Part shown: one piece after another, positions 3,632 to 32,496 of the stretch | Layout of the letters: every line of letters begins with the position of its first letter | Position numbering within the stretch: the stretch's first letter is position 1 | Position numbers and translations under genes: made by a program | The notes under the pieces: model-generated | What the model was told of the DNA's origin: nothing | The model's input: the letters and a program-made list of their open reading frames with translations, nothing else | Databases searched by the model: none | DNA from: Promethearchaeota archaeon | Lineage (GTDB): Archaea > Asgardarchaeota > Heimdallarchaeia > Hodarchaeales > Hodarchaeaceae | Reading direction: 5' to 3' | DNA: 49,867 nucleotides | NCBI GenBank assembly: GCA_048938105.1 | Contig: JBHLMN010000030.1 | Coordinates: forward strand, 1-49,867

Positions 3632-3985
3632 GTGAAAATAATGGTTGAAAAAGCACCAATTGGATATAAATGTTTGAATTGTGGAGAAGTTCATTATCCC
3701 AAACATGGTCGTTGTCTTCAATGCAAACAGCGGGATTTTGAAGAAGTAGAACTTCCTTCTGAAGGTTCTCTTATTAATTATACTATTTTGAAAGCTCCAC
3801 CTACAGGTATAGAAAAATCTTCACTCATACTAGGCATCATCGATCTTGGAGAAGTCCGTTATACAGGCCAGCTGGAACTTGAACCTAAAGATATCAAGCT
3901 GGGAATGAAACTCAAGGCTGTTTGGAGTAAAGTTCGTGTAATTAATGGAAAACAAGTTTTTGGTTTTGTTTGGACGCAAATTTAA
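3632..3985 (+). CDS. DUF35 Zn-ribbon/OB-fold protein (thiolase partner)
   Basis: CLNCG...CLQC ribbon followed by OB-fold-like strands; directly after the thiolase. Likely start is ATG 3641 after GGTGA. Confidence 0.9.
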   Translation: MKIMVEKAPIGYKCLNCGEVHYPKHGRCLQCKQRDFEEVELPSEGSLINYTILKAPPTGIEKSSLILGIIDLGEVRYTGQLELEPKDIKLGMKLKAVWSKVRVINGKQVFGFVWTQI

Positions 3986-26251: not shown

Positions 26252-29200
26252 TTGATACTCATGATTGTTGCGAAATCCCAGCAATTCTATTTAATTAGCG
26301 TTTTATGTCTTATGATAATTCTACCTCTTCACAATATGCCTCAAGAAAGTTCAGACACAACTTTTCAGAACATAAATTTCTCTCCTCAAATAGTTGGTCA
26401 AGAACCCTCGAAGGTTAACTTATTATTTTCTTATAACCCTTCTGAAAAAAATCTTATTACTCAGGTTTTGAATCAATTTAATCCGTTGTATTTACACTTA
26501 TATCGTAATTTCCCTATTGGATTTGTAACTTATCAAGAGAATACTCTTCCTATAATTCAGAAAACTTATCCTAATATTTATTCACGGTTAAAAATCTCTC
26601 AGCAATCCCAAGTCATTCCTTCAATCGAAGAATTCAAACCCCAGAAGATGAGCGGGACTCAACAATCTAGTTATGTTCCCCCCTCAGAAATTATCAATGC
26701 TGGTACTCTCTGGAATAAAGGATTCGATGGGAAGAATGTAAAAATAGCAATCATTGACTCAGGAATCGACGGGGACCCAGCCCAGGGGGATTTTGAGGGA
26801 AGGATTATATATGAAGAGTCATTTATTAAGGCAGAGTATGGATTTAGTTCCGGCTCTGAAGAAGACGCTCGGGATTACCATGGACATGGTACCCATGTAG
26901 CTGGTATTGCAGCTGGGGCTGGTTCAACATATAGGGGTATCGCATATAATGCTGATTTAGTAAATCTAAAAGCAGCAGACATGTCAGGCTATTCTACTAA
27001 AGAAGCAATGCTAGCAGCTCTCGATGAAGCAATCGCTCAATCTGTTCATGTTATCTCAATTTCTATTGGCTTTGAAAAATCATCTCCTTGGGGTTCTGGA
27101 GATGAATTAACACAAGCAGTTGATAGTGCAGTGGACGCTGGGATAACTGTGGTCATCGCAGCTGGTAATGAGGGGTCTAATGACGAATTAGCATCCATAG
27201 GGTCTCCAGGGTCAGCTCGTAAAGCTATTACAGTAGGTGCAACAAATGGGAGTTACAATGTGGCATCGTTTTCAAGTCGAGGCCCCTCTTTTGATTTTAA
27301 AGTAGATCCTGATGTTGTTGCACCTGGTGTACAAATTATTGCTCCCTTAGCTCATGGTTGTATAATAGAGTTAGCATATGAATCTCTTGTTGGTGTTGAA
27401 TTAGGAGATTATGTTAGTCTTTCAGGAACGAGTATGGCGACACCAGTTGTTAGTGGAGCAGTTGCATTACTGAAACAACAGTACACTATAGCAACTCCCG
27501 CAGCTATTCGTGCTGCTCTCCAGGAATCTGCTGTTGATATGAATGAGGATCTCTACACTCAAGGGAGTGGGTTGATAAATGTTGGAAGAGCTTCTGAATT
27601 ACTTAAAAGTACAGAACAATCTAATGGTTTCACTTTAATCTCATCTTTACCAAAAGCAAAGAGTGATAAGCCTATTGAATTTGCTGAACGCGTTGCTTTT
27701 CCTGGAGACAAAACTCAAATGGATATTTCATTTATGACTGGAATTGGGGGTACTATTTCTTGGGATATTTCTGAATCAATTGCAAAGTTTATTGAGTTTA
27801 ATTTATCTTCACAAGTACAATCTTCTGCAGGGTATTTTGATAGATCATTAAACCTAACCATTCCATTGAATACTGCCCCAGGCACCTATCATGGAAACAT
27901 TAGTTATACTTTTCAAGGCATTAAACATGTGATTCCGCTTGTTTTCACCATAAACAACCCCAATTCGAAGATTTATTGGGATACATATTATACTGGTAAG
28001 GATGATTCCCCATTTTTTAATTATAGAGCTTTAGATGATTTACTTACGACCAATTTACATTTTGATATGAATGAGTATGAGAATACCATAACTTGGGAAA
28101 ACCTGTCACAAAATAATATATTGGTACTTACTGACCTAGAATACCCCTTAAGTGAGGAAGAACTCACCACTATATTCAAATTTCACAATCAAGGTGGATC
28201 CATTCTCTTAGTAACCTCTGCTTTTCCATATTTCAATTTAGATGCCTATTCACGCCTTTCAGCAGATTTGAGTATTCCTGTAAATTTCACTGATCGGTTG
28301 GATCTAGTGAACTACACAGACAATGGAAGAAATCGGAAAGCTATTCCGTTATCTTCCCAGGGAGTAGATATTTATTGGGAGGAAGGAAATCCATTATTTG
28401 AAGAAGTAAACCAAATTCCATTCAAGATGGGTACTGCTTTTACAAGCAATCAAAACGATCTCACTTTAAAGTATCAAGCCTGGGTTAAGGATCAATCCTA
28501 TCTGGTGGCAGCAGCATTTGAGCCAATTGAAAAAGGGAAGGTTTTAATCTTAGGAAGTGAACTTTGGCTTTATTCCTCATTCATTTCGACTGATGATGGT
28601 CAGAATTTTGTAAGGAATATTTTTGAATGGTTAAAACCTGAAAACGGATTAATAATTAATTCCCAAATTTCCCCTAATCATCAGCTAGAGATTTCAGGAT
28701 ATTATTCTTCAGAGTCACCTCTTTCAGTAGAAATTAAATTATCGAACGGGAGTACTCTTCTGGAGAGTTCATTGCTTTATAATGCTACATTACAACATCA
28801 TCATTTAGTTATTCCTCTAGGAGAACCAACAAATCAAACGATATCAATATCTATCAAGAATGGACAAGTAACATTGAAGGAATTCGTTTTTTTTGATTTT
28901 AATGATCTTCCTGAAGTTGAAGAAATACAAATAGTTTTTTCTGCCTCTTCTGACGTGATTTTACCATCTTGGGTTAGTGAAGACTCATATGACTTTGTTA
29001 TAGATGAAGGAATAGAAATTTTCATTAATCATTCCGTTTCTAGTGAGGTACAATCGACTCTCTTGATTTCTAATCAGCTTGAAGACACCCTTGACGTAAT
29101 TAATCCCCCTCTCGAGAGTTTGGAGGAGATAGTTAATGAAACTGTATTATCTCTTGATTCTAATACCCAACAATCTCTTTATTGGCCTGTCCCAGCTAAT

Positions 29201-29992
29201 TTTTCAACAGGATATTATTCATACGAAATACAAGTTTGGGTTGAAAAAAATGACTACACGGTTTTAATAAATACTAAGCGAGGATTTTTCATCATTTCTG
29301 ATCCTGAACCAACATTCAATGCACAGAGTGCAATTAAAGGGCAAACCATTGAGTACTACAGAGATATTGAATCTTCAGCGGACATTCCAACTTGGAACCC
29401 TGGTGAAACTATTGAATTAAGGCTAATAGGGCAAGATATTAACAGTTATGAGTTCACGGTGTATGTACAGTTGATACATTATTACCTGTGGTTAGTTGAC
29501 AGAACAGTTTTGGATTACTTCGAAATACCTCGATCTACGTTAAACAAAAGTGAAAATATCGGATCATTTGTTATTCCTAATCGTCCAATTCCTTTACCAG
29601 GTGAAGAGTATGAGTTAGAGATTAATAATCAACTATATATCTTCTTGATCTTCCTACGTGACGCACAAGGAAATTATGATATTGAAGCAATTTTCTTTAT
29701 CATTGGTACTTCTTTTTACTTCGACATTGATCCATTTTTCCTCGTTCTTTTCGGAATTCTTGCCTTAGCTGTTGTTGTGGGTATTGTTATTTTAATCCAA
29801 AAAAGAGCTAGCCATCGAACATATCCTTATTCAGTTGTTGGTCCATACTCGACTCAATATCAACCCTCAGGTTCCGAAAAATCCCCATTAATAAGGAAAT
29901 ATTGCCACAATTGTGGTGCACTTGTTGTTCCAGAGGCAAAGTTTTGTAGTACGTGTGGAACCAATTTGTCATTTAAAGATACTCTAGAATGA
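26252..29992 (+). CDS. Membrane-anchored S8 subtilase with GATase-like domain, C-terminal TM and cytoplasmic zinc ribbon
   Basis: Triad IIDSG / HGTHVAG / GTSMATP, oxyanion AAGNEG; IYWDTYY...ILVLTD...GGSILL...GKVLILGS; TM; CHNCG...CSTCG. Confidence 0.92.
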   Translation: MILMIVAKSQQFYLISVLCLMIILPLHNMPQESSDTTFQNINFSPQIVGQEPSKVNLLFSYNPSEKNLITQVLNQFNPLYLHLYRNFPIGFVTYQENTLPIIQKTYPNIYSRLKISQQSQVIPSIEEFKPQKMSGTQQSSYVPPSEIINAGTLWNKGFDGKNVKIAIIDSGIDGDPAQGDFEGRIIYEESFIKAEYGFSSGSEEDARDYHGHGTHVAGIAAGAGSTYRGIAYNADLVNLKAADMSGYSTKEAMLAALDEAIAQSVHVISISIGFEKSSPWGSGDELTQAVDSAVDAGITVVIAAGNEGSNDELASIGSPGSARKAITVGATNGSYNVASFSSRGPSFDFKVDPDVVAPGVQIIAPLAHGCIIELAYESLVGVELGDYVSLSGTSMATPVVSGAVALLKQQYTIATPAAIRAALQESAVDMNEDLYTQGSGLINVGRASELLKSTEQSNGFTLISSLPKAKSDKPIEFAERVAFPGDKTQMDISFMTGIGGTISWDISESIAKFIEFNLSSQVQSSAGYFDRSLNLTIPLNTAPGTYHGNISYTFQGIKHVIPLVFTINNPNSKIYWDTYYTGKDDSPFFNYRALDDLLTTNLHFDMNEYENTITWENLSQNNILVLTDLEYPLSEEELTTIFKFHNQGGSILLVTSAFPYFNLDAYSRLSADLSIPVNFTDRLDLVNYTDNGRNRKAIPLSSQGVDIYWEEGNPLFEEVNQIPFKMGTAFTSNQNDLTLKYQAWVKDQSYLVAAAFEPIEKGKVLILGSELWLYSSFISTDDGQNFVRNIFEWLKPENGLIINSQISPNHQLEISGYYSSESPLSVEIKLSNGSTLLESSLLYNATLQHHHLVIPLGEPTNQTISISIKNGQVTLKEFVFFDFNDLPEVEEIQIVFSASSDVILPSWVSEDSYDFVIDEGIEIFINHSVSSEVQSTLLISNQLEDTLDVINPPLESLEEIVNETVLSLDSNTQQSLYWPVPANFSTGYYSYEIQVWVEKNDYTVLINTKRGFFIISDPEPTFNAQSAIKGQTIEYYRDIESSADIPTWNPGETIELRLIGQDINSYEFTVYVQLIHYYLWLVDRTVLDYFEIPRSTLNKSENIGSFVIPNRPIPLPGEEYELEINNQLYIFLIFLRDAQGNYDIEAIFFIIGTSFYFDIDPFFLVLFGILALAVVVGIVILIQKRASHRTYPYSVVGPYSTQYQPSGSEKSPLIRKYCHNCGALVVPEAKFCSTCGTNLSFKDTLE

Positions 29993-30032: not shown

Positions 30033-30668
30033 CTAAATCGAACAGAAATATATTGTCTTTTTCTCCTTGTCTTTTTGTCCTACATACCCCATATCCTGAA
30101 GAGTACGTAGGTTCTTTTTTATATCTTTTTTAGTCTCTCCGCTCTCTTTTGCAATGTCTACGATTGTTCCTTCTTCTAAAGAAACTATCGCGAGAGCTGT
30201 TCTGTGAAGAAGTGGCGGTAGATTGAAAATCTCACCTGTAGTTAGTTTCTTACTTGGTTTTATTGATTTGGATTCATCCGTAATTGTTTCTGTTTGGATA
30301 ATTTCACGAATAGTATCTTGAAATGGTGCAAAAATACTGAGATTTGAATCCCAGTCCATTAAAACTTCACCGTATTGTTTGATAAATCGAAATCCCAACA
30401 TTTGAATTATATCTTCAGGAGTTTTAGGGACGTCAGTTACGAGTACAAGCCGAAAAAAACCAAAAGATCTTATATGATAAGAAAGCCCTTCAATTTCAAT
30501 GCTTTGCATCTCCGAATCATCTTGTGTCATTTCACTGGTCAAGTTTTGTAATGCGGTAAGTAATCCGCCGAATAAGATCGCATTTGGAATATTCTCGTCG
30601 CATTGAAAGTTCTCAGATAGGATTGTCCGGCCATCCTCCGCTATAACATAAATTGCATATACAATCGT
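30033..30668 (-). CDS. Longin-like plus wHTH protein, copy 2 (probable ACG start at 30668; ORF track starts it at 30542)
   Basis: Frame stays open and homologous to copy 1 for 42 codons upstream of 30542 (TIVYAIYVIAEDGRTILSENF...GGLLTALQ) with no ATG/GTG/TTG; AGGTGA lies 6 nt before ACG. Confidence 0.75.
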   Translation of the reverse strand, partial: TIVYAIYVIAEDGRTILSENFQCDENIPNAILFGGLLTALQNLTSEMTQDDSEMQSIEIEGLSYHIRSFGFFRLVLVTDVPKTPEDIIQMLGFRFIKQYGEVLMDWDSNLSIFAPFQDTIREIIQTETITDESKSIKPSKKLTTGEIFNLPPLLHRTALAIVSLEEGTIVDIAKESGETKKDIKKNLRTLQDMGYVGQKDKEKKTIYFCSI

Positions 30669-30998
30669 ATTATTTCACCTTTTCAAATAATACCTAAGAA
30701 AATGTACTAAAATGTTTTGAAATTATATTTTCTTCTTGACATTGTAAAACCCAGATAAACATAATATCGGAAGAAAACTTCATAATTAGTAAAAATTCCT
30801 TAATTATCTTTATTATTTTATTTCGTTCTTTCTTATGATTGTTTTTCCCATTTCTCTACCAATAGTCGCGCTTTTTCAGCATACTGTTGAATCTCTTCCT
30901 CCTTACAATAGAGTTTTTTATAGACCAGATATCTCATGTATCCCACCCACTTTTTATGGCTTTTCAAATGCATGAAATGTCATATTCAAACTGTGATT

Positions 30999-31634
30999 TC
31001 AGATCGTGCAAAAATAGATTGTTTTTTTCTTCACTTTTTTTGTTCCTATAAATCCCCTTTTCTTCAAAGTAGCCAAATTCTTTTTTATAACGTCTGCTTC
31101 CTCTCCACTTTCTAATGCAATGTCATTAATCGTTCCCTCCTCTAATGAAACCAGTGCTAAAGCAGTTGATTGTAAATGATGAGGCAATCCAAAGATTTCA
31201 CCCGTGTTCAGCCTTTTTTTAGGTTTTATTGATTTAGATTCGTCATACCCAACTAATTGTTTCATAACTTCTTGAATTGTTATCTTAAATGGACTAAAGA
31301 CGTTCAAATCAAATTCCGTTTCTGTTAATATATCTCCATACTCATTTATAAATCGTAACCCAAGTGTTTGCATGATATCTTCTGGAGTTTTGGGTACATT
31401 AGTGACTAGTACAATCCTGATAAGCCCAAATGAGCGGATATGGTAGGATAATCCTTCGATTTCAATGCTTTTCATTTGTGAATTTTGTTGTGTCATCTCA
31501 GTTGTAACTTGTTGAAGTGCTGTAAGTAATCCTCCAAGTATAACTTCATTAGGAATATCCTCAGCTGACTGAAAATTTTCTGATAGAATTGTTTTACCTT
31601 CTTCTGTTAATACATATACAGCATATATGATCGT
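30999..31634 (-). CDS. Longin-like plus wHTH protein, copy 1 (ACG 31634 or TTG 31652 start)
   Basis: IYAVYVLTEEGKTILSENF...LGGLLTALQ...SIEIEGLSYHIRSFGLIRIVLVT longin pattern; GTINDIALESGE...LATLKKRGFI wHTH. Confidence 0.8.
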   Translation of the reverse strand, partial: TIIYAVYVLTEEGKTILSENFQSAEDIPNEVILGGLLTALQQVTTEMTQQNSQMKSIEIEGLSYHIRSFGLIRIVLVTNVPKTPEDIMQTLGLRFINEYGDILTETEFDLNVFSPFKITIQEVMKQLVGYDESKSIKPKKRLNTGEIFGLPHHLQSTALALVSLEEGTINDIALESGEEADVIKKNLATLKKRGFIGTKKVKKKTIYFCTI

Positions 31635-31635
31635 G

Positions 31636-32496
31636 TTATTCCACCTCTCCAAATAATGTTGGGATCAAATCAATGAGAGTCGTAGAAAAAACATGATCGG
31701 GTTGTTCTAAAGTATAGATAATTCTTGAAGCCTCAAGACCTTGCAAACCTTTAACCGCTTCTTGGAATTCTATATTCTGAAGTTCAAAGTCTGTTGGAAT
31801 CCACCCAAGAAATTCTACTATTTTATCACCAATATCTGCAGTAAACCGCTTTTCAATCAGTTTTTGGATTTCTTTTTTCTTCGTATTACTTTCAATAGCC
31901 TCTTTGGGAATAAGATTAGCTAATACCAAAGATCTGTTTTTTAATTGTTTAAACAAACCAGCGATCATTTGTGAGGTACCAAAGATGTCTGCATTACTCA
32001 ATTTTACAATAAAAAGACTTGAATCTGTTGCAAGCATGACATTGACAGTTGAATAACCTGTTCCTGGAGAACAGTCGACAACCATGTACTCGATTTCATA
32101 AGGCTTTTCTTTAAACCCTTTTTTGAGTTTAATTAGATTTTGAAGCATTTTGATTGAGGTTTTTTGATCAATACGGATAAGATTTTGGATTGATTCGGGT
32201 GTAGGATCCGCATAACCTACCCAAAGCTTTCCTGATAAATTAAGCAAAGAGGAAACATCATGTAAACAATTATCCATGGTTTCATTACCCAGTAAGTATT
32301 CGTTAAGCCAACTGATCTCTGGGTCCTTTCGAAAAAAAGTCATTATACTTGGTCCATGAAAATCGTTATCTAACAAGCAAACCCTCTTACCTATTTTAGC
32401 TAAGTGGACTGCTATATTCACGGCAATACTGGTTTTTCCCACACCACCTTTATGAGACAGAATTGCTAGACTTCTCAATGACACATTAGCCACCAT
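31636..32496 (-). CDS. MinD/ParA-family ATPase
   Basis: Deviant Walker A HKGGVGKT, LLDNDFHGPS, VVDCSPG, LANL, GWIP. Confidence 0.9.
   Translation of the reverse strand: MVANVSLRSLAILSHKGGVGKTSIAVNIAVHLAKIGKRVCLLDNDFHGPSIMTFFRKDPEISWLNEYLLGNETMDNCLHDVSSLLNLSGKLWVGYADPTPESIQNLIRIDQKTSIKMLQNLIKLKKGFKEKPYEIEYMVVDCSPGTGYSTVNVMLATDSSLFIVKLSNADIFGTSQMIAGLFKQLKNRSLVLANLIPKEAIESNTKKKEIQKLIEKRFTADIGDKIVEFLGWIPTDFELQNIEFQEAVKGLQGLEASRIIYTLEQPDHVFSTTLIDLIPTLFGEVE

Follow-up and report, generated by a model that had tools for sequence, protein, structure and literature searches.

Candidate ACG start codons in two paralogous longin-domain genes of a Hodarchaeales archaeon

The locus and its two paralogous genes

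We analyzed a stretch of 49,867 nucleotides (hereafter, the window) from a Promethearchaeota archaeon of the order Hodarchaeales (GenBank assembly GCA_048938105.1, contig JBHLMN010000030.1, forward-strand positions 1 to 49,867). The window is contig C15 of this genome, designated G000 in our collection, whose assembly comprises 5.85 Mb at 35% GC. On its minus strand, an ATPase gene is followed by two paralogous genes, copy 1 and copy 2, for which a first-pass annotation had proposed initiation at a conserved non-canonical ACG codon. Our comparisons point the same way: translation of both paralogs probably starts at ACG, as part of a relaxed start choice that appears to be genus-wide. The features concerned, in window coordinates, are listed below, with SD denoting Shine-Dalgarno sequences and wHTH a winged helix-turn-helix.

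31636..32496, minus strand: gene for a MinD/ParA-family P-loop ATPase of 286 amino acids (open reading frame and Pfam)
31650..31652, minus strand: in-frame TTG six codons 5' of the copy-1 ACG, the start chosen by gene finders (MERWNN...)
31641..31647, minus strand: SD-like GAGGTGG of copy 1, 6 nt before ACG, duplex -10.8 kcal/mol
31638-31636, minus strand: ATPase stop codon TAA, followed by C at 31635 and then by the copy-1 ACG
31632..31634, minus strand: proposed ACG start of copy 1, aligned with the ATG, TTG or CTG of 16 homologs
30999..31634, minus strand: copy 1 coding sequence, 211 codons from ACG to TGA (31001-30999), predicted longin domain and wHTH
30669..30692, minus strand: remnant of the ATPase 3' end, duplicated along with copy 2, SD included
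30686-30684, minus strand: TTG upstream of copy 2
30675..30680, minus strand: SD AGGTGA of copy 2, whose TGA (30677-30675) is in frame, three codons before ACG
30666..30668, minus strand: proposed ACG start of copy 2, aligned with the starts of homologs
30033..30668, minus strand: copy 2 coding sequence, 211 codons from ACG to TAA (30035-30033)
30540..30542, minus strand: TTG at codon 43, the first canonical in-frame start of copy 2

The ATPase has the features of the MinD/ParA (SIMIBI) group, with the deviant Walker A motif KGGVGKT visible in its translation and Pfam matches above cut-off to ParA (2.2e-18, 67 bits), AAA_31 (1e-17, 65 bits) and CbiA (6e-13, 49 bits). The paralogs are separated by 330 nt and are 64% identical. 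The layout described in the first-pass annotation was reproduced throughout: the copy-1 ACG lies 1 nt past the ATPase stop, both copies measure 636 nt from ACG to stop, the TTG upstream of copy 2 is closed off by the in-frame TGA inside AGGTGA, and copy 2 holds no ATG, GTG or TTG for 42 codons, the first in-frame one being the TTG at 30542. The distance from GGTG(A/G) to ACG is 6 nt in both copies, and the genes cited for comparison do show GGTGA followed after 5 nt by ATG (at 3641 and 8800) or after 6 nt by TTG (at 2089, minus strand). Because the 24 nt 5' of the two ACGs are identical at 19 of 24 positions, versus 14 of 36 farther upstream, copy 2 evidently retains a remnant of the ATPase 3' end (LFEKVK-stop versus LFGEVE-stop), as had also been proposed. 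This resemblance is clearer in genome G008.

Two observations on the surroundings may be added. The last ATPase codons, G-E-V-E-stop (31636-31650, minus strand), also spell the SD of copy 1; in the corresponding operon of G008, whose downstream gene starts with ATG, the ATPase ends in G-E-S-S-stop and the SD is weaker. A large subtilase gene (window 26252-29992, plus strand) converges on copy 2, with synteny extending to at least four further genomes or contigs (L153, L155-L157). Judged by gene order, the neighbourhood of ATPase, longin-wHTH gene and subtilase is conserved.

The start position among homologs

Our collection contains 21 genomes of the genus, 12 of which encode 23 homologs of the paralogs. 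Alignment of their 5' ends, which had been suggested as a check, placed ATG (12 genes) or TTG (3) at the position of ACG in 15 of the 23 genes, CTG in 1 and ACG in 7. ACG, one base (the middle one) off AUG, thus occupies the canonical-start position of homologs; public members of the family mostly begin MI[VI]YA. The seven ACG genes belong to four genomes, comprising both copies here, both copies of G009, both copies of G014 and copy 2 of G008. The single CTG homolog is that of G001, and its near-identical ortholog in G016 has TTG. In a maximum-likelihood tree, the ACG genes fall into two well-supported clades: the ATG-bearing G008 gene is basal to three ACG genes in the copy-1 clade, and all four genes have ACG in the copy-2 clade. 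This topology requires at least two changes between ATG and ACG, plus one between TTG and CTG.

All four copy-2 orthologs (the present one and those of G009, G014 and G008) carry AGGTGA-N6-ACG with the in-frame TGA, and farther 5' of the SD their sequence is not conserved. Since this TGA lies only three codons before ACG, no upstream start is possible for copy 2 and its ACG orthologs. Copy 1 of G014 also lacks a usable upstream start: it has a 2-nt spacer past the ATPase stop that places the TTG out of frame, and its 22 open upstream codons hold no ATG, GTG or TTG. Three additional public contigs with ACG were found. In L154 (copy-1 type, likewise with no usable upstream start), the ATPase TAA directly abuts ACG; L157 (copy-2 type) reads AGGTGA-AATAAC-ACG with the TGA in frame; and L153 (GCA_054390355.1) shows the same synteny, including the neighbouring subtilase, with ACG at the start of copy 1. 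In copy 2 of L153, CTG stands behind GGTGA-N5 in place of ACG (L153:1495-1515), and this gene is annotated from a GTG inside the SD itself. From the ATPase stop to ACG, the spacer therefore measures 1 nt in G009, 2 in G014, 1 in L153 and 0 in L154, with ACG kept in all, so the upstream TTG that opens the MERWNN reading is not conserved in frame. On this sequence comparison, the variable spacer is what is expected of an untranslated spacer and not of a coding MERWNN extension. The copy 1 of the window itself keeps an in-frame TTG six codons upstream.

Public databases hold these proteins in altered form. Copy-2 types appear as fragments of 158-169 amino acids, beginning at codon 43 or the next ATG (truncated entries are P0002 for the present genome, P0025 for G009, and P0024, P0034, P0036, P0040 and P0043), and copy-1 types appear either with a MERWNN-like extension (P0014) or, in cases of an out-of-frame TTG, as fragments of 165-169 amino acids. 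A different case is an ATG-type member at L155:262-400 (GCA_048886445.1), in which codon 7 has changed from TAT to TAA and whose annotation is a fragment of 164 amino acids; unlike the ACG cases, it is a real pseudogene or an assembly error.

Protein-level constraint begins at ACG. Among orthologs, the ratio of nonsynonymous to synonymous substitution rates (dN/dS, Nei-Gojobori) was 0.04-0.19 for codons 2-43, and 0.04-0.13 for those of copy 2, versus 0.07-0.11 for the remainder, so that the 42 codons singled out in the first-pass annotation are under purifying selection equal to that on the rest of the gene; dS among the orthologs ranged from 0.6 to more than 2, that is, to saturation. An AlphaFold model of copy 1, built on 20 homologs (pLDDT 82), predicts a longin fold at residues 3-128, consisting of two strands, a helix, three strands and two helices, and a wHTH at residues 144-209. 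The best Foldseek matches were the Sec22b longin domain (1ifq, E 8e-5, TM 0.70) and sedlin (2j3w), followed by the N-terminal domains of AP sigma and mu and by zeta-COP. A Pfam search of the paralogs returned no longin match, and for copy 1 a TrmB match of 9.5e-5 that falls below the curated cut-off. Residues 3-128 are thus predicted to resemble longin proteins such as the Sec22b N-terminal domain, sedlin/TRAPPC2 and AP sigma (TM up to 0.70), with sequence identities of only 10-17%, and the C-terminal 65 residues resemble TrmB-like winged-helix regulators; unlike the paralogs here, eukaryotic longin proteins have neither a wHTH fusion nor an operon with a MinD/ParA ATPase. Strand 1 of the modelled fold begins at residue 3, and a start at codon 43 would remove strands 1 and 2 and helix 1. 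Judged by this constraint and by the model, the first 42 codons are translated.

The ACG codon itself is more constant than expected by chance. The seven ACG genes share 63 columns in which the amino acid is invariant and the codons are at least threefold degenerate, and a single codon is used in all seven genes at only three of these columns: the ACG at position 1 and two others, where the codons (ACT and ATT) are common ones. Among the threonine codons of the genome, ACG is the least used, at 8.4%. The codon after it drifts among ATC, ATT and ATA, and isoleucine is found there in ATG-starting homologs too. Because ACG is frozen while the next codon drifts, ACG and not the isoleucine codon appears to be the constrained initiation signal.

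The 3' end of the 16S rRNA reads ...GGATCACCTCCT, and GGAGGTGA-like motifs are therefore genuine SD sequences. In the ACG genes, (G)AGGTG(A/G) lies 6-7 nt before ACG, at the distance of a ribosome-binding site: over the whole genome, GGTGA most often stands 6-7 nt before the start, about three times as often as at 9-10 nt. The mean energy of the duplex between SD and anti-SD was -9.4 kcal/mol for ACG and CTG members of the family and -6.7 kcal/mol for ATG and TTG members (Mann-Whitney p = 0.001, which overstates the difference, the genes compared being related).

Candidate near-cognate starts elsewhere in the genus

The window's own genome, to which all tests for an excess of SDs apply, was screened for open frames of at least 150 codons that have no canonical start for 20 codons, with an SD counted at 5-8 nt. 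An SD preceded 3 of 14 ACG, 8 of 44 CTG and 7 of 126 ATA codons, compared with 220 of 1944 ATG codons and about 1% of other codons; for near-cognate against other codons, the odds ratio was 3.8 (p = 9e-6). Under a relaxed count, the excess of near-cognate starts came to about 36, next to 327 canonical starts led by an SD. The excess was seen at CTG, ACG, ATA, ATC and ATT, and in the relaxed count over the whole genome no excess of upstream SDs was found at AAG or AGG. This set of codons matches the ranking of near-cognate codons by initiation efficiency in eukaryotes. An A at +4 follows six of the seven SD-preceded ACGs and all ACG starts of the two families examined.

Four candidates from the screen were compared in other genomes of the genus:

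G000 C52:468303-470210 (L043:301-2208), plus strand: CLC chloride-channel gene, orthologs L081-L094
G000 C52:399490-400578 (L040), minus strand: Fe-ADH gene with ATA at the start position
G000 C18:56748-58127 (L042), minus strand: FIST-domain gene with CTG at the start position
G000 C31:58041-59330 (L038), plus strand: FAD-oxidoreductase gene with ATA at the start position

The CLC gene is the cleanest ACG-start family seen: TTGGAGGC-N7-8-ACG is present in 12 of 14 orthologs, with TTG in the other 2, and the residues past the start are strongly divergent. The codon next to ACG here is AAA, AGT or ACA, none of which can initiate; ACG itself should therefore be able to do so in this genus. The Fe-ADH gene, by species, has ATA in 8, CTG in 4, ATT in 1, ATG in 1 and TTG in 2; its Pfam domain begins at residue 10, the first canonical start comes 59 codons later, and canonical starts are found in its orthologs from other families of the class, so that for this gene the habit was traced as far as the genus. 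In the FIST gene, CTG is found in four species and ATG, GTG or TTG in others. The FAD-oxidoreductase gene has ATA, ATT (twice) or ATC, four near-cognate codons in all, where the start in others is TTG or ATG; the frame is closed by a stop two codons 5', and the first canonical start comes only after the GxGxxG motif.

Several further genes may be mentioned. In the Fe-ADH ortholog of G010 (L131), the aligned start position is occupied by GTC, preceded by TTAGGAGGA-N6, and a stop closes the frame five codons 5'. In the large subunit of a Mo-hydroxylase (G000 C49:97311-99647, minus strand; L041), a conserved VVGKSVPKVDA lies 5' of the first canonical start, and ATA stands behind GAGAGGTGA-N6. A Vps4-like AAA ATPase (G000 C40:4834-6045, plus strand; L039), 48% identical to the genus-wide copy on C11, has its MIT domain 5' of the first canonical start and an ATC behind GAGGT-N5. 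This gene was set aside as evidence on starts, since it is a second and divergent copy, lacks close orthologs and lies on a contig of 6.8 kb; it may represent contamination or a mobile element.

With regard to the initiation machinery, ARAGORN, run with and without introns on the window's own genome, found 15-20 tRNAs and no tRNA-Met or tRNA-Thr. So few tRNAs in 5.85 Mb suggests that most tRNA genes are probably intron-containing or atypical. An Rfam search gave 27 tRNA matches, listed with no anticodons, and a pattern search found one initiator-type tRNA(CAU) at C11 ~97215-97320 (plus strand), with an intron after position 37. The pattern search for initiator-like tRNAs showed no look-alike with a CGU anticodon among the matches listed, and a dedicated initiator tRNA reading ACG is unsupported. 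The gene for aIF1 (SUI1; G000 C9:42328-42345) has an ordinary in-frame ATG. At the same locus, a second, out-of-frame ATG 4 nt past GAGGT opens a short overlapping frame, which may be a small upstream open reading frame.

The first-pass annotation had gone further and suggested that near-cognate initiation was retained to keep expression of the paralogs below that of the ATPase. ACG initiation is supported by the comparative evidence, and the comparisons of homologs, of the MERWNN extension and of the second codon, which that annotation had named as possible refutations, did not overturn it. The proposed purpose is not supported: near-cognate starts extend to unrelated genes across the genus, ATG serves in sister operons that contain the same ATPase, and it is the ACG and CTG genes that have the stronger SDs. 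The idea is unsupported because near-cognate starts are not specific to the operon, and the stronger SD looks like compensation and not deliberate down-tuning.

Interpretation and comparison with known systems

Taken as a whole, these data make it probable that translation of both paralogs starts at ACG and that this belongs to a genus-wide relaxation of start choice. SD-positioned initiation at ACG is very likely for copy 2 and, somewhat less firmly, likely for copy 1. Both paralogs would be intact genes translated from an ACG 6 nt 3' of a strong SD. An ancestral ATG probably became ACG by a single T-to-C change that was retained through speciation, and the SD appears to have been strengthened in the same ACG lineages. 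The usual initiator Met-tRNA would read ACG despite mispairing at the middle base; initiation by the ribosome at ACG, the insertion of methionine and its efficiency are what we infer from sequence. In the genus at large, ACG, CTG, ATA, ATT and ATC would start a few percent of genes. One step beyond this, the start check of Hodarchaeales-type Asgard archaea may be heritably relaxed, so that ACG, CUG, AUA, AUU and AUC, and not AAG or AGG, are regular main starts when a strong SD holds them in the P site; we rate the chances of this broader proposal as about even.

Several points weigh against ACG starts. The support for them is wholly comparative and computational. In E. coli, ACG initiates very poorly. 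For archaea, reviews list AUG, GUG and UUG as the only accepted starts (PMC7531240, PMC4705826). An in-frame TTG lies six codons 5' in the copy 1 studied here and in several relatives, and most annotations use it. The counts of ACG are not counts of independent events, because the ACG genes share descent, and two changes suffice on the tree. Moreover, a 9-nt SD spacing, which would fit the isoleucine codon that follows, is fairly common in the genome.

Of the competing explanations, the one that deserves most attention is that copy 1 starts at the in-frame TTG (31652-31650) with the MERWNN extension, which would leave copy 2 alone dependent on ACG. TTG is canonical in archaea, it is in frame in the present copy 1, in G009 and in L153, and the annotations of ten clusters of public proteins include ME[RK]W..T extensions. 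Ribosomes terminating on the ATPase could in principle reinitiate there, 14 nt before its stop. The TTG is nevertheless preceded by no SD, the GAGGTGG being placed 6 nt before ACG, and it arises incidentally from Phe-Gly codons conserved in the ATPase. The variable spacers put it out of frame in G014 and L154 with no harm to the gene, and the sister ortholog in G008 has ATG at the ACG position. We thus regard a TTG start of copy 1 as unlikely. Initiation at the second codon instead of ACG, a possibility that the first-pass annotation had raised against its own proposal, appears more improbable still. AUU, AUC and AUA are near-cognate, ATA, ATT and ATC stand at the start positions of other genes of the genus, and the resulting spacing of 9-10 nt is also present in the genome. 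Against this, the isoleucine is equally conserved as residue 2 in ATG-starting homologs, which identifies it as a structural residue of strand 1; it drifts freely over all three codons and ACG never varies; spacings of 6-7 nt predominate; and the codons after ACG in the CLC family indicate that ACG is competent.

There is very little to recommend conversion of ACG to AUG by C-to-U editing of the mRNA, as in plant organelles. Where start codons are edited in organelles, the classic signature is a conserved ACG in place of the ATG of homologs, and the family resembles it to that extent. The genus, however, also uses ATA, ATT and ATC starts, which cannot be converted to AUG by deamination of C; a search of the genome, made with no positive control, found no DYW-type deaminase domain; and to our knowledge, mRNA editing is not known in archaea. 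Least credible of all is that copy 2 is a recent pseudogene, by a Trp-to-stop change in an MKRW-type extension, or that its ACG is a sequencing or assembly error. Taken alone, the change from TGG to TGA at 30677-30675 relative to copy 1 does resemble a nonsense mutation, and gene finders call a truncated product (P0002). Yet the TGA and the ACG are common to orthologs in at least four independently assembled genomes or contigs, dN/dS is about 0.1 along the whole length with dS saturated, the length is exactly conserved at 211 codons, and the sequence 5' of the SD is not conserved; neither relaxed selection nor a lineage-specific disruption was seen. Two other candidates were rejected. Fusion with the ATPase by readthrough or frameshifting does not fit spacers of 0, 1 or 2 nt among genomes or a copy 2 that has no upstream open reading frame, and TGA as a sense codon does not fit copy 1, which itself ends at TGA.

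If these near-cognate starts are real, a few percent of the proteins in these genomes are systematically truncated or given a wrong start by standard gene finders. The copy-2 fragments in databases would lack half of the longin domain, the MERWNN extension of copy 1 would be spurious, and inventories of eukaryote-like proteins such as longin domains would be affected together with the structure predictions derived from them. The stringency of aIF1/aIF2-type start selection in the lineage closest to eukaryotes would also become experimentally approachable. If the start check is indeed relaxed, the exchange of ATG for a near-cognate codon together with a stronger SD would be a routine way of setting expression in evolution.

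A literature search, confined to the searchable library, found no report of ACG, CUG or AUA main starts in Asgard archaea. Elsewhere in archaea, ribosome profiling of Haloferax volcanii found about 30% of the harringtonine-identified alternative starts to be near-cognate, and the authors set these sites aside as possible false positives (PMC7261190). Those sites were alternative starts seen by profiling, whereas here the evidence is the evolutionary conservation of candidate main starts. Conserved non-canonical starts are known in bacteria: AUU or AUA for infC, AUU for pcnB of E. coli, and ATC for dnaA and CTG for rpsL of Deinococcus, where ATC and CTG starts were proven by N-terminal proteomics (PMC2830850). 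The bacterial cases are likewise SD-led, with a conserved near-cognate codon where relatives have ATG and with N-termini misplaced by gene finders. They differ in that they involve ATT, ATA, ATC or CTG, never ACG, in a handful of genes per genome, whereas several unrelated families are affected in the present archaeon; infC in addition is tied to autoregulation by a fidelity factor, and the aIF1 gene here has a normal ATG. Plant organelles with edited starts have the same genomic ACG where homologs have ATG, but C-to-U editing does not explain the ATA, ATT and ATC starts that co-occur here.

A further comparison is that with near-cognate initiation in eukaryotes and their viruses, in which CUG and ACG, likewise one base off AUG, are read by Met-tRNAi. 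Archaeal aIF1, aIF1A and aIF2 are homologs of the eukaryotic factors (PMC4705826, PMC7531240). In eukaryotes, however, such starts depend on scanning and Kozak context and give rise to an alternative isoform, whereas here an SD duplex at a fixed 6-8 nt would position the codon, which would be the sole start of the protein. Were the start check relaxed as proposed, the archaea most closely related to eukaryotes would have their own, SD-guided version of the near-cognate initiation seen in eukaryotes.

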